DNA of 64,000 nucleotides from Eledone cirrhosa (taxonomy: Eukaryota): contig OZ024740.1 in assembly GCA_964016885.1 (NCBI GenBank), positions 175,026,001 through 175,090,000 of the forward strand. The letters run 5' to 3'. Below the pieces are notes generated by a model. The model worked only from the letters and a program-made list of their open reading frames with translations. It was not told the origin of the DNA and did no database searches. The translations under genes and the position numbers were made by a program. This document shows positions 3,370 through 62,916 of the stretch, in pieces; the stretch's first letter is position 1; every line of letters starts with the position of its first letter.

Positions 3370-5040
3370 TCATCATCATCATCATCATCAACGTTTAACA
3401 TCCGTGTTCCACGCTTGCATGGGTTTGGACGGGGGTAGTCCCACTTGAGGCAAGAGTGATTGTCTTGCTCGCATAGGACTGTCTGGCAGGTTTTCTACAG
3501 TTGGATGCCCTTCCTAACACCAACCACATTTACAGTGTGGGTCTGGGAGGTTTTTACCGTGTTGCCTACACGGCCACATTACAGCGTGGACTGTGTGTTT
3601 TTTTATCGTGACACCTACACGATCTCATTTGTTTCGGCCTGGATGGTGTGGCACCAACATAACTTTACATAGAAGAGGGTGGTGTGGATGGGGTGGGGGT
3701 GGTGGGACGGGGGTGTATTTTGTTAGAGATGCCTACTGACTGTAGTAGGTTTTACATTGTATTTAGGTAAGGCGGGTCTTCTCTGTTACTGAGTACCGCC
3801 AAAGGTCTCGGTCCAGTGACATTGTCTTGGAGAGGTGTAAGTGTGTGAGGTCGGAGTTTATCAGCTCGTCCCAGGTTTTTCTAGGTCTGCCTATTCTGTG
3901 GCTACCGTCTATCTTTATTGCCCTGCACTTTGTTATACAGCTATCGACTTTCATGCGCATCACGTGACCATACCAACATAGCCTTCTCTCGAGTAAACAA
4001 CATCTGATCCCTCTTATTTCTAATTTTTTCCTTAGTTCGTTTATGCTTTGCCGTTCACGTATATTACTATTACACATCCAGTCTGCGTATATCCTCTGCA
4101 CACAATGCCCAGGTCTCACTGCCATGCAACATTGCTGTTCGTATGCAGGCATCATACAACCTGCCTTTCATTTTTAGGGAGAACCCTTTAGCGGCTAATA
4201 GTGGTATAAGCTCTCTGAACTTTTTCCATCCAGTTCTGACTCTAGCTACTGTACTTTCAGAGCACCCTCCCCCACTGCTGATTTTGTCACCCAGGTAACG
4301 GAAGCTGTCCACTATTTCTATAGAGCCCTCTGCGCAGTTGTAAGAGCTAGTATTTTGTGGGCACTTGCTGCTACTTATTGCACCAGAGCACCGGCCACAT
4401 GTAAAATCTATGTTTTTAGTTAGCTTACCTGTGATCCCACTACATCTTTTATGCACCCATACTTTGCATTTGGGACATAAAATGGAGTTTCTACCTACGC
4501 CTTTCCTACACACTGAGCATGGCCATTTCCCGGAAGGGACCGCCGCCTTATTTTCTTTCCTACAAACTAGAACTTTAGTCTTAGCCAGGTTAATTTTAAG
4601 GCCTTTTGATTCTAGGCCGTGCTTCCATGTTTGGAATTTCTTCTCTAGCTCGGCCATTGATTCAGCTATCAGTGTTAGGTCGTCTGCGTATAGGAGTTCC
4701 CATGGGCAGCCAGTCTTGAACTCCTCTGTTATAGCCTGAAGGGCAATAATAAATAGTAGGGGGCTGAGAACAGAGCCCTGATGGACGCCAACTTTTACGC
4801 TAAACTCTTCACTATATTCGTTGTTAATTCTAACCTTGCTGACTGTTTCTTTATACATGGCTTGTATAGCTCTCACAAGCCATTTGTCGACACCTAGTTT
4901 TCTAAGGGCCCACCAGATAATGAAACAGGGGACTCTGTCGAAAGCTTTCTCCAAGTCGACAAAAGCTAAGTAGAGGGGTTTACCTTTAGCTAGGTACTTC
5001 TCCTGTAGTTGTCGTACAATGAAAAGAGTGTCTGTGGTAC
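3370..5040 (-). mobile_element. 5'-truncated RTE LINE, subfamily A (RT + PHD finger + 3'UTR + (ATG)n tail)
   Basis: ORF 4070-5143 has FVDLEKAFD, GVHQGSVLSP, YADD and SFRYLG. ORF 3763-4155 has WYGHVMR..GRPRKTW. (CAT)n tail at 3370. Confidence 0.95.
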
Positions 5041-5089
5041 TTACTCTTATTAATATTTTTGTGTTGGATATTAACATATTTTTACTAGA

Positions 5090-5162
5090 TAAGAAAAAAG
5101 TATATTCTTGTTTCATTGGCCTTGAAAAGGCATATGACCACATTCCACAAGACCTGCTGTGG
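5090..5162 (+). mobile_element. Short RT fragment of a second RTE family
   Basis: Translates KKVYSCFIGLEKAYDHIPQDLLW (DLEKAYD motif). Confidence 0.6.
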
Positions 5163-5230
5163 ACACCAGGTACACTTTTCCATGTGCTCTATCTTCAGAA
5201 GTAGAGCATATGGAAAAGTGTACCTGGTGT
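5163..5230. repeat. Near-perfect 29-bp hairpin
   Basis: acaccaggtacacttttccatgtgctcta ... tagagcatatggaaaagtgtacctggtgt. Confidence 0.9.
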
Positions 5231-16029: not shown

Positions 16030-19000
16030 TGATGGCTACCTACCTCACAATTTCCCTCACACCACCATAGCCTATTCGACCAATCAAACCTCAGCATGTC
16101 CCCCCCCACCCATTACCAACCCCAACAAACCCTGCCATTTCTACTACTACCTACCTCTCTCCTCTCACTCGTCCAAGCCCCAACACACCCTGCCATTATT
16201 ACCACCACCACTGTTCTTCTAGCCCTGAATTTTCCTACCATTATGTATGGATGAGCTGAGAATAAATGGAGCAACTCCGAATTAATAAATGAAAATGAAT
16301 ATGAATCCGCGAGCGACCAAGCACCCATGTGAAGCTTCAATTCAGAGACAGGAAGCACACGCACACCCCTCAAAAATTGACCCTTCCCCACGAACTTTGA
16401 CAAATGCCCAAAACTCTGAGTTGGTACCATCAATGTAAGCACAATAAAAAGAAGAGCACGAGAAATTGTAGAGATGCTAGAGCGAAAGGAAATAGATGTA
16501 TGCTGTGTGCAAGAGACTAGATGGAGAGGAGAGTCTGCTAGAGTCCTTGTAGGAAAAAGTCAGTGCTACAAATTTTTCTGAGTGGGAAATGACAATGGGA
16601 TGGGTAGTGTAGGTATCCTACTAGCTGACAAGTGAGTAGATAAAGTAATCTCAGTGAACAGGGTGAATGCAAGAATCATTAAACTCAGACAAGTCCTGAA
16701 TAAAACAATTACCACAATAATATCAGCTTACGCACCCCAATCGGGGTTGCCAGACGAAGTTAAGGATAGGTTTTACGAGTCTCTAATGCACACTACTGCT
16801 CTAACAAACAACAATGACTTCCTAATCATTGCAGGAGATTTTAACGGACACATAGGTAAACACTGTGACGGCTTCTATAGAGTCCATGGAAGCCATGGGG
16901 TTGGCACAAAAAATGAATTCTGCGACGCCAATAACATGTCGATATGTAACACAAACTTCAAAAAACCCGAGAACCACCTGATCACCTATAGATCAGGGGA
17001 GCATTCTAGTCAGATAGATTTTATCCTCATCAGAGGACGTGACAGATGGATGGTCGTAAACACAAAAGCCTTCCCTAGTGATGAATGTACCTCCCAACAT
17101 AGCTTAGTTGTCAGCAACCTCACGGTCAGAACTAGATGAACCTGGAAACAGAAGCCAACCTGGAGAAGAAAGATCTGGAAGCTGAAAGACCCCTCAGCCA
17201 GTAACAGATTTAAAGATATTTTACTCAACGCCTACGACAGTAAAGAAGAACAGATAGAGACATTCAATATAGAAGAGCACTGGGAGTTCCTAAAAAATAA
17301 CTTACTAGAGGCGACGGATGAGATCTGTGGCTGAAGTAAGACCACAGGCAGAAGGAGAGTGACTTGGTGGTGGAACAATAAGGTAGATGAATCAGTTAAG
17401 GCCAAGAGACAGGCATGGAAAGAATGGAAGAACGGGGGAAGCAGGGTACATTATATAGAGACCAGGATGGAAGCTAGGCGACAATTATACTTAGCTAGGA
17501 GGGAAGCATAGGATAGAAAATTCAAGTATGCACCACTGATGCCCTCTTCCTTCTGAGGCAATTACAGGAAAAGTACCTAGCTAAAAGTAAGCCACTCTAC
17601 CTGGCATTCATCGATCTCGAGAAAGCCTTTGACAGAGTTCCCAGTGCTATAATCTGGTGGGCTCTTAGAAAACTAGGAGTAGATGAATGGCTTGTGAAAG
17701 CTGTACAAGCCATGTATAGGGGAACAGTCAGCAAAGTTTGGATTAGCAATGAGTATAGCGAGGAATTTAGCGTACAGGTCGGTGCCCACCAGGGCTTTGT
17801 TCTTAGCCCTCTCCTGTTGTTCATAGTCCTGCAGGCAATAACAGAGGAGTTTAAGACCGGATGCCCATGGGAACTCCTGTATGCAGATAACATCGCACTT
17901 ATAGCTGAATCTATGGTAGAACTAGAGAAGAAATTCCAAACTTGGAAGCAGGGACTAGAAAGAAAGGGTCTCAAAGTCAACCTGACAAAGACTAAGGTCC
18001 CTGTAAGTACTCGAGAAAACAGAACCCAGATCCGCTCAGGGAAATGGCCTTGCTCAGTATGTAGGAAAGGTGTAGGTATGAACTCCATTCTCTGCCCCAA
18101 ATGCAAACAATGGGTACACAAGAGATGCAGCGGGATCTCAGGAAGCTTAACTAAGAATGTAGGCTTCACGTGTAGCAGCTGTGCTGGGACAGCAAGCAGC
18201 AAACAGCCACAGGAAACAAGTACCAACAATCTCTGGGAGGGCTCTGTAGAAACAGTAGACAGCTTCTCCTACCTAGGTGACCGAATTCGCAGCAGAGGTG
18301 GGTGTTCAGAAAGTACAATAACTAGGGTAAGAACGGGATGGAAGAAGTTTAGGGAGCTACTTCCACTGCTAGCTGCAAAAGGCTTTTCCCTCAGAATGAA
18401 AGGCAGACTGTATTATACGTGTATATGAACAGCAATGTTACATGGTAGTGAGACCTGGGCACTGAATGTGGAAGACTTGCGTAGATTAGAAAGAAACAAA
18501 GCCTGCATGCTCCGATGGATGTGTAATAGTAATATACGCGAACGGCAAAGCATAAATGAATTGAGAGAGAGACTGAGCATAAGAGGAATCAAATGCTGTG
18601 TGCAGGAGAGGAGGTTGCATTGGTATGGACGTGTGATGCGTATGAAGGATGATAGCTGCATAAAAAGCACTAGAAGTCGATGGAAGCCGCAGAGTGGGGA
18701 GACCCAAGAAGACCTGGGATGAGGTGATAAAGGCCGACCTAACCCAATTACACCACTCAAAGGCGATGATACACAACTGTGACCTCTGGCATCACGCAGA
18801 AATACAGAATACCCGACCCCCACACGGGTACAAGCCGAAGCATATAGACAGTATGCCCCTCCTCCACTGCAAAGTGGTCGTGGAGGTGCCACAGCACAAA
18901 AAAGCACCCAGCCCACACTGTAAAGTGGACGTGTAGGCGCCACGGAAAAAAAGCACCCAGCACTCACTGTAAATGAGGTTGGTGTTAGGAAGGGCATCCA

Positions 19001-37878: not shown

Positions 37879-37989
37879 ATATATATATATATATATATAT
37901 ATGTAGGAGGTGAGTTTTATAGTACAATAAAGCAATGCAGATATCGGATAAGAAGCACTCTACAGTTTGTAGGACTGGAGTATAGATAA

Positions 37990-38234
37990 TATATAAGATC
38001 AAAAGATGGTTAAAAGAGTTCCATGTATTTTATAATGTTTATCCAAAAGCATTTCAAAAACAAATATCATCATGCAATAACATTTGTGTTTTCATCAGAT
38101 AAAATAGGAAGACATATCATGTCTTCCTATTTTATCTGATGAAAACACAAATGTTATTGCATGATGATATCTGTTTTTGAAATGCGCATAATAAAATACA
38201 TGGAACTCTTTTAACCATCTTTTGATCTTATATA
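37990..38234. repeat. Fold-back element, ~120-bp arms, 3-nt loop
   Basis: Arms meet at gacat-atc-atgtc (38111-38123). Confidence 0.95.
38128..38198 (+). ncRNA. Type I minimal hammerhead ribozyme
   Basis: tattttat-CTGATGA-aaaca..tgttttt-GAAA-tgcgca-TA-ataaaata; 8-bp stem I; palindromic stem III. Confidence 0.8.
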
Positions 38235-38237
38235 TAT

Positions 38238-38587
38238 CATCATTTTCATTTCATCATTTCATTTTACGTCCGCTTTTCCCTGCTTGCAAGGGTGGGACGG
38301 GAACTGATTCTGGCTCGATTTCTACAGCTGGATGCCCTTCCTAACACCAACCTCATTTACAGTGAGTGCTGGGTGCTTTTTTGCCGTGGCACCTCCACGA
38401 CCACTTTGCAGTGGAATGATAGGGACCCCAGTCCCTATCATCTCATTTCTACAGCTGAGGAAACTGGAGCAATGTGAAATAAAGTGTCTTGCTCAAGGAA
38501 ACAACACATCACCCGGTCTGAGAATTGAACTCACAACCTTTCGATTGCAAGGCCAATGCTCTACCCATTAAGCCATGTGCCTCCATA
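38238..38587 (-). mobile_element. SINE family 1
   Basis: Reverse copy of 10939-11278. Confidence 0.93.
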
Positions 38588-38717
38588 TATATATATATAT
38601 ATATATGCGTGTGTGTGTGTGTGTGTCATTGTTTAACGTCCATCTTCCACACTAGCATGGGTTAGACGGTTTTGTTCCACTTGAGGCAAGATTGGTCTGG
38701 AATATATATATGTATAT

Positions 38718-38905
38718 ATTGTTTCTACTTTAGGCACAAGGCCAGCAATTACCCAGTGCATTACTGGTACTTTATTTTATCGACCCCGTAAGGATGAAAG
38801 GCAAAGTCAACCTCGGCGGGATTTGAACTCAGTTCGTTAAGGGACGTAACACGCTGGAAAGCATGGCGTCCGACCCTCTACCGATACTGCCAATCCACCG
38901 CCCTT
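38718..38905 (-). mobile_element. SINE family 2
   Basis: Near-consensus reverse copy. Confidence 0.92.
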
Positions 38906-39029
38906 ATATCCACCCTATATATGTATATATTGATTGTTTTATAGGTTTGTGCAATAAATGAATTTGATATACTGTTTATAGAATCAAAATAATATTTCTG
39001 ATAATACTGATGTTAGTCCTTGTCATTTC

Positions 39030-39340
39030 CAATGACCAGTTTCTAGTTAATTCAATCAATGGAACAGCTTGTTCATGAAATTTAGATGTAAGTGGCTGAG
39101 CATTCTACAGACACGTGTATCCTTAGTGCAGTTTTCAGAGAGATTCAGCATAACAATGTATGACTATGCTGGCTCCTTGTAATACACGTACTGCTAATTT
39201 TTGCCAATTGAGTGGACTGAAGCAATGTTAAATAAAGTATCTTGTTCAAAGACATAATGCACTACTGAGTTTGAGAATCAAATTTACAACCTTACAATCA
39301 AAAGATGAACACACTAACATCTAAGCCATGTGCCTTCATG
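39030..39340 (-). mobile_element. Older SINE1-related element
   Basis: ctaagccatgtgccttca head and aagcaatgttaaataaagtatcttgttcaa core, with a different tail. Confidence 0.7.
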
Positions 39341-39704
39341 CACACCAATACTACCAGCTTCTCAGAATGCTATATTAAGAAGCTGGTAGTATAAGTGAAA
39401 CCTCAAAATAAACAGTCATTATTATTAATAAACATTATTCTAAATTAACCAAATATTATCTTGAATTAACCAAATTTTGTTTGCACTCCTAGCTTTACAA
39501 AGCTTCTGAAAGATGATAATTGGCAGCTAGATGTGCTTCAGTGTAATGGAAAAATGTGGTCCTGCTGCATATGACAGATACATGGTTCAATTCCTGCAGG
39601 TGTTTTTGTCCACTTTTTCATTCTCCAGGGATACTTTACTTGACTTATACAACAATTATTTATAGTTATTTGCAATATGGCAGATTCTCAAAAAACAAAC
39701 ATAT

Positions 39705-39741
<37 letters not shown>

Positions 39742-39743
<2 letters not shown>

Positions 39744-40315
39744 AAAAAGTATGACCCGACGGCAGAGCTCAAGTCGTTTCGACGGCTATTTCTGGACTAA
39801 ATTAGAATTTTTAGCCTGGTAAATAAATATCCGAACTTGTCAAGGGGTACTTCCTTATATGGGAAGATTGTAGTTGTCAAGAGGATTGGTCAAAATTTGT
39901 TGTAAACACAAATAAGTCTATCATGGCATTTGGTGGGAGGTGTGGGTGGCTGAACTTGCCTGTAGAACATTGAAAGGGTCATAGTGCAATTAGCCTGTAG
40001 AACAATGTTCTACAGGCAAGTTCAGCCACCCCCACCTCCCACCAAATGCCATGACAGTCTTATTTGTGTTTACAACAAATTTTGACCAATCCTCTTGACA
40101 ACTACAATCTTCCCATATAAGGAAATACCCCTTGACAAGTTTGGCTATTTATTTACCAGGCTAAAAATTCTAATTTAGTCCAGAAATAGCCGTCGAAACG
40201 GCTTGAGCTCTGCCGTCGGGGTCATACTTTTTCCAATTCCCACTCTACTATCCTAAGTATTGAGTACTCTGGTGCGTTATCGTCCATCTGGTTCCTTACC
40301 ACATTTCCTTCGTTA
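39742..40315. mobile_element. Fold-back HHR element (~230-bp arms + unpaired 3' tail) in (TA)n
   Basis: Arms 39742-39972 and 40003-40234; tail 40235-40315 shared with 62375-62453. Confidence 0.93.
40127..40222 (+). ncRNA. Type I hammerhead ribozyme, U3:A8 core variant
   Basis: acccc-TTGACAA-g..ggctattt..aaatagcc.tc-GAAA-cggc..gccg-TC-ggggt; all three stems pair. Confidence 0.8.
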
Positions 40316-40343
40316 TATACATATATATATATATATATATATA

Positions 40344-41527
40344 CTAGCAGCAGAACCCTGCGTTGCACGGGGTAGGAAACGTGAAATAGCACCACGTATA
40401 GACAAAGATTGAGGAATATAGCTGTGTACATTTTGAATTCCCTTATTCTCAGGGAATGATTGTTCATCTACTGGAAACGTAGAACACCAGCAGCCCGAAT
40501 CCAGTAGTAGCAATGTCAGTGGGCTGATTGTGGAAATCCTGTATGTGAAAGGAGTAAGTAAGTGTTGTGGGGCGATGTATGTCGTAAGTCTGTTCACGAA
40601 TTACGTCATGGATGGGGAACACATGTCAGTCTGAAGGAGCGACGTGTGAAAACCAAGTAGGGATGTACGTTTAAGTAGGGATATTGAGATGACGAAATCA
40701 GCGTGGCAACGCAGCTGCAGCAGAAGGTAGGTAGGTCATAGTGCAATTAACATAAATGCTGGGCGGCACTGGTTGCACTGCATTTACACAGCAACAAAGG
40801 TGCGACAAAAGGGGTCACCTCAGAATTAGCACAACCGCTGTTCAGCGTACTTGCGCAGGTCGTTCATACTGCAGTGTAGGTGCAACAAAAGGAGTATTAG
40901 TAGAAGTAGCACAAACGTGAGTTTTACGGTGTCAATAACTCGGCAACGTACACAGGGCCCGGATTTGCGCGTGATGAAAGCACGAAGCGTCAACAGGGCA
41001 ATAACAAAAATTTTAAGGTCCTCCTCATTTCCTCAATCCCCCGAAAATGGTTCTGCTTAAAAGTAAGTAAGTGTTGTGTCCTCTGTTAAATAAACCAAAT
41101 TTTTAACAAAATATTATACGCTATTTATGATGTTTAACTAGCGTTTATATTGAAAATGAAAATGTCATGTAATGCCCAATGCTAATTCGTAAATTTCCTA
41201 GAAACCATTAATGGAATCGGAAATGTTTTTTGTCCACAGCAATGCAAGGGGACTAACTAATGTGTGCTGCATATTTCAAGGAAATCGGCTGGATTATCTT
41301 TAAGTTACGCCTCAAAAATGCCTTTAAAATGCGGGGGGTTTTTCGCCTAAAAAAGTTTTTTTAATTTTTTTAGAACTGTTTCATTTGTATGTTGATTTTT
41401 AAATAAATAAATAATGATACTGGCTTAATTAAAGCATGTGTGAGTGGGAAAATGATCGAAGATTTTTGGTTTTATCCAGTGACTTCATTTCAGTATTATC
41501 ATTATTAGTATAAAGAAAGTATTATGA
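40344..41527 (-). mobile_element. Non-autonomous Helitron
   Basis: Minus-strand 3' end has hairpin cccgtgcaacgcaggg then CTAG|T; TC start near 41516-41527. Confidence 0.75.
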
Positions 41528-54282: not shown

Positions 54283-57200
54283 TCATCATCACCGTTTTAC
54301 GTCCGTTCTTCCACGCTAGCATGGGTTAGACGGGTTGTCCTATTGTGGGCAGTATCTGGTCGGCTGACCATGCCTTGCTCATACAGGAACTGATTTGGCT
54401 TGATTTCTACAGCTGGATGCCCTTCCTAACACCAACCTCATTTACAGTGAGTGCTGGCTGCTTTTTCGTGGCGCCTACACGTCCACTTTACAGTGTGGGC
54501 TGGGTGCTTTTTTTGTCGTGGAACCTCCACGACCACCTTCCGGTGGGGGGTGTGGGGGCATATTGTCTATATGCTTCAGCTTGTACCCATGGGAGGTCGG
54601 GTACTCTGTATTACTGCGTGACGCCAGAAGTCACGGTCGTGTGTCATTGTCTTTGAGAGGTGTAATTGGGTAAGGTCGGCTTTTATCACCTCATCCCAGG
54701 TCATCTTGGGTCTCCCCACTCCGCGGTTTCCATCAACTTCTAGTGCTCTGCACCTTTTTATGCAGCTGTCATCCTTCATACGCATCACATGTCCATACCA
54801 GCGCAACCGCCTCTCCTGCACACAGCATTTAATTCCTCTTATGCTCAGTCTCTCTCTCAATTCATTTATGCTTTGTCGTTCACGTATATTATTGTTACAC
54901 ATCCATCGGAGCATGCAGGCTTCGTTTCTCTCTAATCTACGTAAGTCTTCCACCTTCAGCGCCCAGGTCTCGCTACCATGCAACATCGCTGTTCGGATAC
55001 ACTCATCATACAGTCTGCCTTTCATTCTGAGGGAGAAGCCTTTTGCAGCTAGCAGTGGTAGTAGTTCCCTAAACTTCTTCCATCCCATTCTTACCCTAGT
55101 TATTGCACTTTCTGAACACCCACCTCCGTTGCTAATTCGGTCACCTAGGTAGCAGAAGCTGTCTACTGTTTCTACAGGGCCCTCCCAGAGATTGGTGGTA
55201 CTTGTTTCCTGTTTGCTGTCTCAGCACAGCTGCTGCATGTGAATCCTACATTCTTAATTAAGCTTCCTGAGATCCCGCTACATCTCTTGTGTACCCATTG
55301 TTTGCATTTGGGGCAGAGAATGGAGTTCCTACCTACACCTTTCCTACATACTGAGCAAGGCCATTTCCCTGAGGGGATCTGGGTTCTGTTTTCTCGTCTA
55401 CTTACAAGGACCTTAGTCTTTGTCATGTTGACTTTGAGACCCTTTCTTTCTAGTCCCTGCTTCCAGGTTTGGAATTTATTCTCTAGTTCTACCATAGATT
55501 CAGCTATGAGCGCGAGGTCATCAGCATACAGGAGTTCCCATGGGCATCCGGTCTTAAACTCCTCTGTTATTGCCTGCAGGACTATGATGAACAGGAGAGG
55601 GCTAAGAACAGAGCCCTGGTGGACCCCAACCTGTACGCTAAATTCCTCGCTATACTCATTGCTAATCCTAACTTTGCTGACTGCTCCCCTATACATGACT
55701 TGTACCGCTTTCACAAACCATTCATCTACTCCTAGTTTTCTAAGAGCCCACCAGATTACAGCATGTGGAACTCTGTCAAAGGCTTTCTCAAGGTCGACAA
55801 ATACCAAGTAGAGTGGCTTACTTTTAGCTAGGTACTTTTCCTGTAATTGCCTCACAAGGAAGAGGGCATCAGTGGTGCCTCTTCCTGGTACAAACCCAAA
55901 TTGCATCTCGTCTATTTTCACCCGGTCCCTAATCAGCTGTGCTATAACTCTTTCTGTTACTTTCATGACCTGGTCCATCAACTTTATACCTCTATAGTTT
56001 CCTCTATCTAGTGCATCGCCTTTACCTTTGTAGCAGTTGACAATGATGCTACTGCACCAATCTTTTGGTATGGCCCCTTCTAGTATTACCTGGTTAACGA
56101 TACGTGTGGTTATAGTGTGACCTACAGACCCAGATGCCTTCAGCATCTCGGCAGCTATACCCGATGGACCGGTTGCCTTCCCCATCTTCATATCTTTGAT
56201 TGCCTTACTTACTACGCTGCCGCTGACTTGTACTGCTGGTCCCTCTATAGGGTCTACTTGGGGTAGGGTCACTTCTTCCCATGCATTCTCCTCATTTAGT
56301 AATCTATCATAATGACTCTTCCATGCATCTTTCTTCTCAGCACTTGTGAGGGCAAGCTCACCTTTAACATTCCGGATACACTTCTCTCCAATGACATCAC
56401 AACTATCTCTGACACACTGCCTCACAATCTTGAATACCTCCTGTTTCTGGTCCTCACGTTGTAAAACATGCTTGAATTTTCTATCCTCTGCTTCCCTCCT
56501 AGCTAAGTATACTTGTCGCCTAGCTTCCCTCTTGGTCTCTATGTAATGTACCCTGCTCCCCCCGTTCTTTCATTCTTTCCATGCCTGTCTCTTGGCCTTG
56601 ACTACTTCATCTACCTTATTGTTCCACCACCAAGTCACTCTCCTCCTGCTTGAGGTCTTACTCCAGCCACAGACCTCATCCGTCGCCTCTAGTAAATTAA
56701 TTTTTAGGAACTCCCAGTTCTCTTCTACATTAAATGTCTATATCTGTTCTTCTTTACTGTCGTAGGCGTTGAGTAAAATATCTTTAAATCTGTTACTGGT
56801 TGAGGGGACTTTCAGCTTCCAGATCTTTCTTCTCCAGGTTGGCCTCTGTTTCCGGGTTCGGCTAGTTCTGACCGTGAGGTCGCTGACAACTAAGCTATGT
56901 TGGGATGTACATTCATCACTAGGGAAGGCTTTTGTGTTTACGACCATCCATCTGTCACGTCCTCTGATGAGGATAAAATCTAACTGACTAGAGTGCTCCC
57001 CTGATCTATAGGTGATCAGGTGGTTGTCGGGTTTTTTAAAGTTTGTGTTACATATCGACATGTCATTGGCGTCGCAGAATTCTAGAAGTCTGAATCCTTC
57101 CTCATTCCTTGTGCCAACCCCATGGCCTCCATGTACTCTATTGAAGCCGTCGCAGTGTTTACCTACGTGTCCGTTAAAATCTCCTGCGATGATTAGGAAG

Positions 57201-57335
57201 TCCTTGTCGTCTGTTAGAGCAGTAGTGTGTATTAGGGACTCGTAAAACCTATCCTTAAATTCGTCTGGCAGCCCCGATTGGGGTGCGTAAGCTGATATTA
57301 TTGTGGTAATTGTTTTATTCAGGACTAGTCTGAGT
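54283..57335 (-). mobile_element. Long RTE LINE, subfamily B (EN partial + RT + PHD + 3'UTR)
   Basis: ORFs 56738-57061, 55172-56425 (NYRGIKL, QFGFVPG, YADD) and 54576-55088; few disruptions. Confidence 0.96.
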
Positions 57336-57608
57336 GTGTGTATATATATGTGTATATATGCATATAAATGTATATATGTATATATTAGAGCTATTTAATT
57401 GTAAGAGACTACTCTGAGTTTCTAACTCACTATATATTTGTCGGCTCCATCATGTTGAGGTAATTTTAAAGTCTTGTTAACCAGGCTGCTATTTTTAGCG
57501 GCATGGGATTTCGAGACAAGCTGGGTTCCGAAGACACGTGCGATAATTCTTATCGCACACAATTCAGTCTTCTAATATATTTAGAAGTGAAAGGATCGCT
57601 AATTTCTC

Positions 57609-57959: not shown

Positions 57960-60847
57960 ATAGACTAGGAGAGAGGCTAGGTGACAAGTATACTTCACAA
58001 GAAGGGCAGCAGAAAATAAAAAAAATGTTTATGCTTTTTATGCAATGTGAGGTGTTCAAGATGGTTAGGCAGTGTGTCAGGGGAAATTGTGATGTTTGGG
58101 AAAAGTGTGTCTGAGATGACAATGGTGCACTTGCCCTCACCAACACAAAAAAGAAAACATCATACTGATGAATGAGGAGAATTCATGGGAGTAAGATAGC
58201 TTGCTCTAAGTAGACACAACAGAGGGACCAGCTGTAACAGCTGTCAGCATAGTAAGTAAGACTATTAAGGATATGAAGACAAGCAAAGCAGCTGAGACAT
58301 TGGAAATAGTTGCTGAGATGCTGAAAGCATCTGGGATGGTATGTCACATCATAACCACCCATAATGTAAACCATGTTATTCAAAATGAATCTATACCCAA
58401 TTACTGGCATAGCAGCATCATTGTCAACTGCTACAAGGACAAAAGTGATGCACTAGACAGAAGAAACTACTGAGGAATCAAATTGATGGACCAGGTCATG
58501 AAGTTTATGGAAAGAGTCATTGCACAACTGATAAGGGATTGAATTAACATAGTGAGATGCAGTTTAGATTGTGCCAGATAAATCTACCAAGAATGCCCTT
58601 TTTCTTGTGAGACAACTGCAGGAGAAGTACCTAGCTAAAGGTAAACCCCTCTGCTTGGCATTTGTTGACTTGGAGAAAACTAGGAGTAAACGAGTGGCTT
58701 TTGAGGGCAGTACAAGCCATATACAGAGGTGCAATCATCAAGATAAAAATAATGACTATAGTGAGAAGTTTAGCCTGCAAATTTGGGTCAACCACGGCTC
58801 TATCCTTAGCCCTCTCTTGTTTATTATCATCCTCTAGGCTATAACAGAAGAGTTTAAAACAGGATGCCCTTGAGAACTCTTGTATGTTGATGATCTAACT
58901 CCCATAGCTGAATCTATGGCAGAACTAGAGGAAAAAATTCCTGACCTAGAAGCACAACCTGGAATCAAAAGGCCTTAAAGTCAACTTGGCAAAGACTAAA
59001 GTCCTAGTGAGTAAAAATGAAAACAAGGCCCTGATCTCTTCAGGGAAATGATTCTGCTCAGTGTGTAGGAATTCTATCCTTTGTCCCAAATGTGAACTAA
59101 GTGTACACAAGATCTCAGGTAGGCTAGCAAAGAACATAGCTTTTACATGTGGTCATTGCACAGGAGCAGTAAGCAGCAAATACTCACTGAAAACAAGCTC
59201 TATCAAATTCTTAGAGGGTTCTGTAGAAGCAGTTGACAGCTTCTGTTACCTGGTTGACCAAATTAGCAGTGGTGGTAGATATTCCAAAAGTACAGTAGCC
59301 AGAGTGAGAACAGGATGGAAAAAGTTCAGTAAGCTACTACTGCTTCTAACTACAAATTTTTTTCCCTCAAAATGGAGGGTGGATTATGTGTATATTAACA
59401 GCAATGTTGCACGAGTAAGAGGGATCAGATGCAGTGTGCAAAAGAGGTTGCAGTGGTATGGACATTTGATGTGCATGAAGGATGATAACTGTATAAAAAG
59501 GTGCAGGGCATTCAAAGTTGACAGAAGCTATGGAAGAGGAAAATCTTCAAAAGTTTGGGATGATATTATAAAAGCCAATCTTCCACAATTGCATCTCTTA
59601 AAGCCGATGACACAGGATTAAGACCTCTGGTGTTATGCAGTACTCCAGAAGGCCCGCTTTCTCTTGTGCATGGGATGAAGCAACATCTAGTGACCTCTAG
59701 TATGCACTACTTGTCCTGCCTCCACACAGTACTACAGATGAACAGCCTTCTCATGTGCAGGATGAAGCAACATTTAGCAGTTTTTAGTATGTACTGCTTA
59801 TCCCCCTCCCACTTCCATACACCTCCCATGTCTTAACACTCCACCCTTCACCAGCTAAGTAGCCTAGCCTAGACCAAACTCCTCCCAATCGCCACCCTAC
59901 ACACACCCCACCTCCACTTTCCCCATCTTATGCACCTCTCTTGACCAACAAGCATCAGAAGATGAACACAATCTCCTACAATGCTGCTGAAATGGTGAAT
60001 GGCTAATAGTTCTCAGTTCACCCTATAAGGTGGTAGAGCTGGTGACACAACAAAAACCTCTAGTTCATGTAAAGTGCCATAACAAAAGAGCACCTAGCCA
60101 TCCCAGAAAAGTGGCCATGTTGGTGACATGAGAAATAAGCACCTAGTCCACCCTGTAAGGCGATTATGTTGGTTACACAACAGGAGTCACCTAGCCCATC
60201 CTGTAAAGTGTGTTGGTGGCATGACAGAAGGCATTTGGTCCATCCTGTAAAGTGTGTTGGTGGCATGACAGAAGGCATTTGGTCCATCCTGTAAAGTGGG
60301 CTTGTTGGTGGCATGACAGAAGGCACCCGGTCCATCCTGTGGAATGAGCAGGGTGGTAACATGACAAAGAGCACCCAGTCAGCCATGTACGGTGGTCATG
60401 TTGGTGATGCAACAAAAGTGCCCAATCCACCCTGTAGAGTGGTCTGACACATCAAAAAGTGCCCAGTTCACCCTGTAGAGTGGTTGTGTTAGTGATATGA
60501 CAACAAACCCCCAGTCCACCTTGTAAATTAGTTGTGATAGAGTCATGACAAAAACACCCAGTCCGACCTGTAAAGTGGTTGTGATGGTAACACGACAAAA
60601 AGTGTCCAGTCCACACTGAAAACTAGTCATTTTGGTGCCAAGCACCCAGTCCAGACAGTAAAGTCGTCATTTTGGTGACATGACAAATAGTGGTATGTCC
60701 ACACTGAAAATGTGGCTGGCGTTAGAAAGACAAAGCAGAAACAGTTCTGTATGAGCAAGACATGGTCATCTGATCTGACTTCTCTTACAATAGGACAACT
60801 TGTCTAACCCATGCTAGCGGCATGGAAAAATTGACGTTAAACTGTGA

Positions 60848-60850
<3 letters not shown>
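57960..60850 (+). mobile_element. Older RTE LINE copy with expanded 3'UTR array
   Basis: RT fragments in ORFs 58273, 58571 and 59061; tail gacgttaaactgtgatgat. Confidence 0.9.
60020..60720. repeat. ~40-44-bp minisatellite within the RTE 3'UTR
   Basis: Recurring cacccagtccac.ctgtaaagtggt..tg.tggtg.catgacaaaa; near-identical 44-bp units at 60196-60330. Confidence 0.9.
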
Positions 60851-60898
<48 letters not shown>

Positions 60899-60908
60899 TG
60901 TGTGTGTG

Positions 60909-61198
60909 TGATGTTTCAGCAAAGTAAGTTGATAGTTTGCTAAACTTTAGGTATGTATGAATATATATATATATCAGATAGGGTGTGGTAAAATACCCAC
61001 CAGAGTACCCGATACTTGGGGTAGTTGAATGGGTAATATGAACAGATTCAGGACCCCGACGGCTGAGCTCTGGTAGTTTTGACAGATCTAGCTGTCGAAA
61101 TGGCCAGAGCTCAGCCGTCGGGGTCCTGAATCTGTTCATATTACTCACTCAACTACCCCAAGTATCGGGTACTCTGGTGGGTATTTTACCACACCCTA

Positions 61199-61259
<61 letters not shown>

Positions 61260-61308
61260 TACATACCTAAAGTTTAGCAAACTATCAACTCACTTTGTTG
61301 AAACATCA
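60909..61308. repeat. Fold-back element centred in HHR stem II, including flanking (TA)n and unique DNA
   Basis: Centre gacag-atctag-ctgtc; arms share gaccccgacggctgagctc with the 39.7-kb and 62.3-kb elements. Confidence 0.95.
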
Positions 61309-61351
61309 TAGCCATTGAAATGAAAGAAATTGAATACCCCCCCCCCCCACT

Positions 61352-61430
<79 letters not shown>

Positions 61431-61446
61431 AAAGAATAGAGCTGTA

Positions 61447-61487
<41 letters not shown>

Positions 61488-61689
61488 TGCACGCAACATA
61501 TTTATATGGATATGTGTGTGTATGTGTGTTATTTTTAATAACTTCTTTAGACATTTTACACATTATTTATTCCTAGTTAAACATTCTATTTATTCCCTTA
61601 AAAGTAAATATATAAAAATAAAAAAGACCACCCACAGATTTCTATAATTATTTACTTTCAGATAACTATTCATAATTTTTTAAATATTT

Positions 61690-62060
61690 TTTCCCCCTTT
61701 ACAAATTTTATTATTCAGTCAATAATGGCCATATCTAAATATCTAACCCAATCGTCACCAACACCACTATCAGCACTAACATCAGTACCACAACCTTGAA
61801 CAATACCACTAGCGCCCTCATCCATTACCTCTAACAAAACCATCATCATCAGCAACACTGCCAGCATGACCTGCACCACTAACAACAACAGCAACAAACA
61901 TTATCATCAGCACTAGCACTAACAACAACTCCCCATTGAAAGCATCATCAATACTGCCACCATCACCAACACCACCAACAACACTACCAGCATCACCAAC
62001 AACAACACAAGTAACAAAACTAGCAACAATCCAACCACCACCTACCCAGCAGCACCACAG
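61690..62060. repeat. Degenerate (CAC/CAA/CAG)n low-complexity tract
   Basis: Direct read. Confidence 0.8.
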
Positions 62061-62269
62061 GGCCAGTTAAGCCTGAAATGCATAGACGGTTGTGCCCCTT
62101 GCTTCTGCTGAATATCACCAGAGGGCGTTAGCACTCCCCCCCCCTGTTTGCATAGCTACAGCTTCCTAAAACCGTATTTCTTTGGAGATACGAAATATTT
62201 ATACATATTGTATAAAGCTATGCTTGAAGCGAAATCCTATTTCTATTATATATATATATATATATATAT

Positions 62270-62453
62270 ATAGGAACCAGTAAGACCCCGACAGCTGAGC
62301 TCAAGCCGTTTCGACGGCTAATTTCGACGTCGAAACGGCTTGAGCTCAGCTGTCGGGGTCTTACTGGTTCCTATTACCCACTCTACTACCTCAAGTATTG
62401 AGTACTTTGGTGCGTTATGGTCCACCTGGTTCCTTACCACATTTCCTTCGTTA
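62270..62453. mobile_element. Short fold-back HHR-family element with 3' tail in (TA)n
   Basis: Arms 62270-62316 and 62328-62374; tail homologous to 40235-40315. Confidence 0.92.
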
Positions 62454-62916
62454 TATATATATATATTTTTTTTTTTGTTACATGTTTCATTTAAAATGCA
62501 TATGTGTAAAGATAAGATTTCTAAGATGTATTAAGAGCTACAAAATAGATAAATTATATTGCTCAATGGTCTTTTTAAAACTCCAGCCATTCCTCTGCAA
62601 AAGCAAACACCATACAATTGACACAATCTTCACTATTTTCTCACCCCTCTGCTACCTTACTCTCTTTCTCCACATACCAACCATGCCCACCCCCGTCTAT
62701 CATGTTTCTTCCCCCTTCTCTTTTTATACACTCTTAAAAAATCTAGTTGTTGAGATGATATTCAGTACTTTCTTCTAAGTTTCACTTGTGTCTTTATTAT
62801 TTTGTTTTGGTGGGGTATTTTTTAAAGTATGTTTTTCATGAATATTTAGTTGTTCTTTATTCACTGAGAGAGAAAATATCAATAAAACATATCTCACTCC
62901 CTCTCTCATATATATA

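Follow-up and report, generated by a model that had tools for sequence, protein, structure and literature searches.

A palindromic, probably Penelope-like copy in Eledone cirrhosa with a mirrored 52-bp flank

The palindrome and its family

The DNA analysed here, called the window below, is a stretch of 64,000 nt from Eledone cirrhosa (assembly GCA_964016885.1, contig OZ024740.1, positions 175,026,001-175,090,000 of the forward strand). The surrounding genome is AT-rich and contains LINE remnants (at 55172-57394, 4070-5188, 17517-18428 and elsewhere), for which Pfam matches to an AP endonuclease, a reverse transcriptase (RT) and a PHD-finger-like insertion were obtained. Degenerate tandem repeats of 44-51 bp recur near such remnants (60000-60715, and also at 1696, 6196, 7910, 18865, 45846 and 52647), and a near-perfect hairpin of 68 bp, whose flanks are unrelated, lies at 5163-5230.

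The subject of this work is a palindrome at 60909-61308, which reads as a 52-bp flank, (AT)7, a 111-bp arm, a 6-nt loop, a second 111-bp arm, (AT)27, and the 52 bp again. Complementarity stops at 60909 and at 61308, and the whole may be regarded as two nested inverted repeats, with nothing between them but TA tracts that differ in length. An earlier note on this DNA had described the hairpin, and both its coordinates and its content are borne out by the sequence, by a repeat search and by alignment of the arms. The same holds for the TA tracts of 14 and 54 nt followed on both arms by an inverted flank (said to be of about 50 bp, and found to be 52 bp), and for membership in a family, as the window contains two more copies. 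The features are as follows.

60850-60910, no strand: left host flank, a compound microsatellite (AT)23-GC-(GT)6, the final 2 nt of which are also the first of the mirrored segment
60909-60960, minus: left 52-bp segment, an inverted copy of the right flank (50/52 complementary) and putatively the copied one
60961-60974, no strand: left TA tract, 14 nt
60975-61085, minus: left inverted element arm, 111 bp, extending as far as the long 3' end, which the inverted arm of neither sibling reaches
61083-61094, plus: centre, CAG, 6-nt loop (61086-61091) and CTG; candidate fold-back primer
61092-61202, plus: right element arm, 111 bp, presumably the primary cDNA; 5'-truncated pLTR-like end plus tail
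61097-61124, plus: 3' half of a type-I hammerhead, with GAAA, a helix III whose loop contains a palindrome, the cleavage triplet (cut after 61119) and the 3' strand of helix I
61203-61256, no strand: right TA tract, 54 nt; candidate primed target site
61257-61308, plus: right 52-bp host flank, probably the native copy; unique sequence from 61309 on
39709-40343, no strand: sibling 1, a head-to-head palindrome with arms of about 230 bp, a short left end, a long right end and a TA tract at either side, its flank not being mirrored
62247-62466, no strand: sibling 2, with a short left arm, a long right arm, a small extra central fold-back, TA tracts on both sides and no mirrored flank

Both differences between the outer arms (60909-60960 and 61257-61308) are transitions. 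Their match has a local score of 94, the maximum among 1982 random segments of the window being 27, and the 52-bp segment has no second copy within the 64-kb window, where its longest other exact match is 12 nt. The element arms (60975-61085 and 61092-61202) are complementary at 105 of 111 positions. The fold predicted for the palindrome region has an energy of -199.8 kcal/mol, which was equalled by none of 100 shuffled sequences.

All three family copies (3/3) are 5'-truncated and arranged head to head, with their centres at different positions. The siblings are identical to each other at 110 of 122 positions (90%), and the copy at 60909-61308 is the outlier, its right arm sharing 86 of 110 and 79 of 100 aligned bases (78-79%) with theirs. 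In both siblings (2/2) the inverted left arm ends at one shared site, 17-18 nt beyond the ribozyme cut, and the right arm extends 78 nt beyond the left-arm end, which makes two fixed 3' ends. The three right arms all share the position of the long end, which adjoins (TA)n; thus, the 52 bp lies outside the element end as set by the siblings. At 60909-61308 the long end is present on both arms. The left arm passes from this end into TA and then into flank, and to judge by its sequence the left side looks like one continuous copy of the right side. All six element ends of the family (the inner junctions) adjoin TA tracts, which make up 2.4% of the window, and neither outer junction of 60909-61308 is a TA tract. 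We found no direct target duplication of at least 4 nt around the outer boundaries of this copy. Directly after the TA tract of sibling 1, the segment 40344-40375 resembles what we take to be a Helitron-type terminus.

Sibling 1 holds an entire predicted type-I hammerhead at 40127-40222, with a mirror copy at about 39750-39850. When folded with the core positions forced unpaired, it has a helix I of 5 bp, a long, branched helix II of 8 bp with a 7-bp extension, and a helix III of 5 bp with a palindrome in its 9-nt loop; the core has U3 and A8. The copy at 60909-61308 begins inside the 3' strand of helix II, and it keeps only the hammerhead 3' half, in which the GAAA...TC-GGGGT half-motif that the earlier note had read at 61097-61124 is indeed present. 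That note had also placed the hairpin centre in stem II. By comparison with the sibling at 40127-40222 the centre does lie on the helix II 3' strand, but the 5' core strand is absent and neither arm is a complete ribozyme. The copy at 60909-61308 is 5'-truncated, devoid of an ORF and without a complete ribozyme.

A search of the whole window against Rfam gave no match at the gathering score. At E<=10 there were 26 matches in 37900-40500 and 54 in 60800-62600, with no hammerhead and none at the gathering score; the best of them were generic hairpin models below their gathering scores and were treated as chance. A scan with the canonical CUGANGA descriptor returned three candidates, none of them in the family of 60909-61308, which this descriptor misses because the core is a U3-A8 variant. 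A second, unrelated head-to-head palindrome at 37989-38235 carries a canonical CUGAUGA...GAAA type-I hammerhead-like motif on each arm, a palindromic helix III on its right arm and short TA runs at both ends; its flank is not mirrored.

Penelope-like traits present in the family are the type-I hammerhead (via sibling 1), 5' truncation with an inverted copy, and an AT-rich or microsatellite target. No RT or GIY-YIG ORF was found in the three family copies, all of which are truncated. Of the 31 long ORFs in the window, six were scanned: three match LINE-type RT, PHD or AP-endonuclease families, none matches GIY-YIG, and they belong to other repeats. The tail at 62355-62452, compared with 61120-61202, shows an in-frame 15-nt gap and several third-position changes, which hints at former coding sequence, with two candidate frames that look alike in this respect; a protein search at E<=10 with the 41-residue frame of the sibling 2 tail, a weak test (4 candidates, one frame), gave no match. 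In a bacterial and archaeal collection, where further copies might turn up as contamination, a strict pattern of the family had 0 matches, and a looser one had 67, which we ascribe to chance, as none was homologous beyond the motif (0/67 at E<=1e-3) and none had TA tracts. The family acts like a Penelope-like element (PLE) and very probably is one.

Other classes were considered and rejected. According to the accessible text of 10.64898/2026.07.22.740005, the units of a non-LTR retrozyme stand in tandem, head to tail, and every one of them has a complete type-I hammerhead; the copies described here are head to head, not tandem, and the window has no head-to-tail array. A MITE or DNA transposon with 52-bp terminal inverted repeats was discarded on account of the missing direct duplication of at least 4 nt and the missing second copy in 64 kb. 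The MITE and Tc1-type readings do not agree either with the lack of a target duplication of at least 4 nt or with the variable centres and asymmetric arms of the siblings.

Divergence of the arms and the fold-back point

The arms of 60909-61308 differ at 8 of 163 aligned bases, and 7 of the 8 differences are transitions (p=0.003 against one third), while indels between the arms occur only in the TA tracts. Polarised by the siblings, the six differences between the element arms comprise four derived changes on the left arm and two on the right, with two in a CpG context. The arms of sibling 1 have diverged similarly (7/228). The spectrum of substitutions and the lack of indels outside TA make a read chimera unlikely, the pattern being that of ageing within a genome. 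The earlier note had argued against a chimera from arm mismatches and from unequal TA lengths. The first argument is a good one. The second was dropped, as it proves little: tracts of this kind may slip in vivo, and reads may mis-call them. We thus regard the feature as confirmed to be real, though a small doubt remains.

At the centre, the CAG-loop-CTG sequence was aligned without gaps to the helix II 3' strand of sibling 1, with identity at 7 of 9 positions for the top strand and 5 of 9 for the bottom one. This gives a likelihood ratio of about 100 for the right arm as the templated one, on 6 loop bases and on the assumption of no gaps and 78% identity. The sibling carries CAG at exactly the required position (background 0.012), and the central 3-bp inverted repeat around the 6-nt loop appears to be a native mini-hairpin. 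A 2-nt gap would rescue the bottom strand, so that, with 6 loop bases, the evidence for polarity is only modest; to this extent it suggests that the right flank is native and that the left 52 bp is the copy. Continuation of a known repeat through the 52 bp on either side would have set the polarity as well, but no match longer than 12 nt was found. The context of the flanks was uninformative in this respect, as this DNA contains TA tracts with a spacing of about 50 bp (61203-61256 and 61354-61427).

The (GT)n run and the mirrored segment have at least 2 nt in common at the left junction. Of the other long GT runs of the window, 22 in number, 8 are followed by AT, so that the true overlap may reach 5 nt. 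Both a native inverted repeat at the fold-back point (3-bp stem, 6-nt loop) and a microhomology for rejoining (at least 2 nt) are therefore there to be seen, and both are short. Such short repeats are also compatible with twin priming.

The centres of the siblings have features of their own. In sibling 1 (39972-40022) both arms start at the same base, and between them lie a 12-bp mini-hairpin and a 16-nt insert. This insert is identical to 40734-40749, about 750 bp downstream, which suggests a templated insertion from the flank; when 10381 positions were sampled, isolated matches of this kind were met at 20, a number that includes these two, and a looser control gave 57 of 2553. The centre of sibling 2 (62305-62340) has an extra 7-nt fold-back and a short overlap to the other arm, like an aborted snap-back. 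To judge from these sequences, the centres of both siblings seem to show short fold-back scars, i.e. short versions of snap-back behaviour.

Possible origins of the mirrored flank

The earlier note had offered two origins for the mirrored flank: an inverted target duplication made at insertion, which is the better supported, and 3' transduction, which is the less likely. On balance we find it probable, by a modest measure, that 60909-61308 is a 5'-truncated Penelope-like insertion whose cDNA folded back, over-ran into host DNA and was joined to the left end via microhomology. The (TA)n tract would have been cut by the element endonuclease, and the right DNA end would have primed reverse transcription at the long start site, a step suggested by the TA junctions observed. 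Synthesis seems to have halted after about 120 nt, within hammerhead helix II, where the copy is seen to be truncated. The 3' end of the cDNA may then have paired with itself through the native 3-bp inverted repeat with its 6-nt loop, both of which are present in the sequence. DNA-templated synthesis, for which the element RT or a host Pol theta-like enzyme is a candidate polymerase, would have copied the whole cDNA and, subsequently, the TA tract together with 52 nt of flank that had been resected or displaced. Such run-on into the flank would be made possible by the covalent bond between cDNA and target strand. Finally, either the new strand would have been unwound or replication of the hairpin would have been followed by its breakage, and 2-5 nt of microhomology at the (GT)n run would then have served for joining to the left end. 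The outcome would be an inert head-to-head palindrome with a target duplication that is inverted, not direct.

Several observations agree with a fold-back over-run of this kind. Flank and element arms are equally diverged (2/52 vs 6/111, Fisher p=1), which fits a single event, and the long end stands on the left arm, unlike in the two siblings, as a copy of the right arm must have it. Further points in its favour are the position of the 52 bp outside the sibling-defined element end, the TA tracts at all six inner junctions but at neither outer one, the lack of a direct target duplication of at least 4 nt, the better match of the centre on the right-arm strand, the fold-back scars of the siblings, and the precedents in R2, in SD-MMEJ joining and at L1 insertions that are discussed below. 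On the debit side, the 3-nt microhomology at the centre would be explained just as well by two cDNAs that were primed independently and then annealed, and at about 180 nt or more the over-run is long compared with the non-processive synthesis that the available text of PMC5728401 describes. The case for the over-run is made by one copy.

It is also conceivable, though unlikely, that the mirrored part is a later extension: a sibling-like insertion with two separately primed arms would have come first, and a template switch at a later break or during replication would have re-copied the right arm, TA and 52 bp leftward. Palindromes beside AT-rich tracts are fragile, and the centre microhomology also suits twin priming. 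Differences between the arms are denser near the loop (4/50 in the inner part vs 4/113 in the outer, four of the 8 lying no more than 12 nt from the loop), as a two-step history would also give, but not significantly so (p=0.25). Moreover, a Penelope-like protein nicks and extends both strands in vitro, with two start sites (PMC11167929, accessible portion). However, two events are required, the equal divergence of flank and element arms speaks against them, and no such extension was seen in three other element-like palindromes whose flanks were compared.

Rather improbable, in our opinion, is 3' transduction, in which a read-through donor RNA containing the element, a TA tract and a 52-nt stretch of the donor flank would have been the template of both arms, with priming at the 3' end of this RNA. 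It would account for the two arms ending at the same base within 2 nt, which is natural if a fold-back copy halts at the primer junction; indeed, if a transduced cDNA were copied by snap-back exactly up to its primer junction, the result would be indistinguishable. Rotifer Penelope families are reported to capture host DNA (PMC3846280), and weak priming from the template 3' end has been seen in vitro (PMC11167929), as far as the accessible parts of these papers go. The insertion site, however, would then be at the outer junctions, neither of which is TA, against TA at 6/6 inner junctions; there is no target duplication of at least 4 nt and no A-tail, and the dominant initiation in vitro is internal, normally excluding read-through flank (PMC11167929, same portion). 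No donor is present in the window, 64 kb being a weak test.

We give little credence to the idea that the 52 bp and the inner TA tract are the consensus of this copy's own subfamily. The earlier note had named membership of the 52 bp in the element consensus as a possibility. Beyond TA, the flanks of the siblings match for 0 bases (10 and 14 of 52), and those of 60909-61308 for 34 bases (50/52); still, siblings only 78-79% identical to this copy and 90% identical mutually do not define its subfamily. Its element end, though, coincides with the long end of the siblings and is followed by TA as theirs is, and its outer ends lie outside TA.

Even less probable is a pre-existing 52-bp inverted repeat around a TA tract (an old fold-back or a MITE), into the centre of which the element was inserted. 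A TA-centred hairpin might attract a nuclease, but inverted flanks were found at none of the 27 TA tracts of at least 12 nt in the window (best score 19), there is neither a target duplication of at least 4 nt nor a second copy in 64 kb, and the long left arm and the equal divergence are left unexplained. A sequencing, amplification or assembly artefact, such as a fold-back read or chimera, is barely credible in view of the substitutions on both arms described above, even though TA-tract palindromes are hard to assemble and the accessible text of PMC8557442 reports assembly problems for such insertions.

How Penelope-like elements make their inverted ends is called unresolved in the accessible portions of PMC8557442, PMC3846280 and PMC11167929. 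Host DNA in the inverted arm is of interest in this regard, as it can come from an RNA template only via transduction; otherwise it was copied from cDNA that had by then been attached to the chromosome. Over-run copies thus offer a purely genomic test among antisense self-priming, twin priming and snap-back. They would also show Penelope-like elements to be a source of local inverted duplications and of long palindromes that may be fragile. We tentatively suggest, as a possibility below even chance, that PLE head-to-head ends in general arise by fold-back of target-tethered cDNA rather than by antisense-RNA self-priming or two primings, that the usual short arm marks the normal cut or release point, and that 60909-61308 is a fossilised over-run intermediate. 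If so, a measurable minority of copies genome-wide should carry inverted target duplications. A single copy is a lead, not a proof.

Comparison with known systems

The hammerhead of sibling 1 may be compared with those of metazoan Penelope-like elements, for which the accessible text of PMC4209133 describes U3-A8 covariation (a variant found in the Schistosoma Cercyon elements), a long helix II, a short helix I and opposite-strand motif pairs 100-700 bp apart. Sibling 1 is alike in its type-I topology, its helices I and II with the extension of the latter, U3-A8 and the palindrome in loop III. It differs in helix III, which with 5 bp and a 9-nt loop makes it not a minimal motif, and the copy at 60909-61308 has the 3' half alone.

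Endonuclease-containing PLEs typically have head-to-head inverted pLTRs, may bear a tail and insert into microsatellites, as presented in the available parts of PMC8557442 and PMC3846280. Our family resembles them in 5' truncation next to an inverted copy, in palindromes at the inverted junction, in targets that are microsatellites or AT-rich and in a target duplication that is often absent, and perhaps also in the 3' tail that one arm may bear. On the other hand, the tail in those elements measures 30-40 nt, against the tail-like difference of 78 nt in the siblings, our family copies contain no ORF, and the inverted arm of 60909-61308 includes host DNA past the element. The two fixed 3' ends of the siblings are reminiscent of the two reverse-transcription start sites which define the tail in vitro (PMC11167929, accessible portion). 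Self-priming has been proposed for PLEs, and it would need an antisense template (PMC3846280, in the part available); the mirrored target DNA points to folding of target-tethered cDNA in preference to antisense-template self-priming.

Joining of the SD-MMEJ or Pol theta type (PMC5728401, accessible text) proceeds by snap-back synthesis, unwinding and microhomology joining. It resembles the fold-back over-run in its short inverted primer repeat (stems of more than 4 bp are disfavoured), synthesis, unwinding and a new microhomology, but its synthesis is limited, against about 180 nt or more here.

Our literature search, whose coverage left out most subscription papers, including older papers on Penelope structure, found no report of an inverted target-DNA duplication made by Penelope-like elements. 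Within that coverage, both snap-back and local inverted duplication have been described, for R2 and L1, and a mirrored flank in a Penelope-like copy seems to be new. For R2, cDNA snap-back before 5' joining is documented (PMC11371274). The likeness lies in the cDNA 3' end priming on the cDNA before upstream joining and in antisense element sequence at the junction; the R2 system was an engineered one in human cells, and the accessible text of that paper describes no copying through the 3' junction into downstream target. For L1, inverted duplications of host DNA and foldbacks occur at insertions (10.1101/2024.12.14.628481, as available), and the accessible part of PMC12350158 adds nothing specific on inverted duplications at L1 sites. 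The L1 inverted duplications lie on the reciprocal end, and foldbacks of the RT end give large rearrangements, whereas at 60909-61308 it is the RT end that would have folded back, the insert stands in both arms, and the chromosome appears to have been healed after 52 bp.
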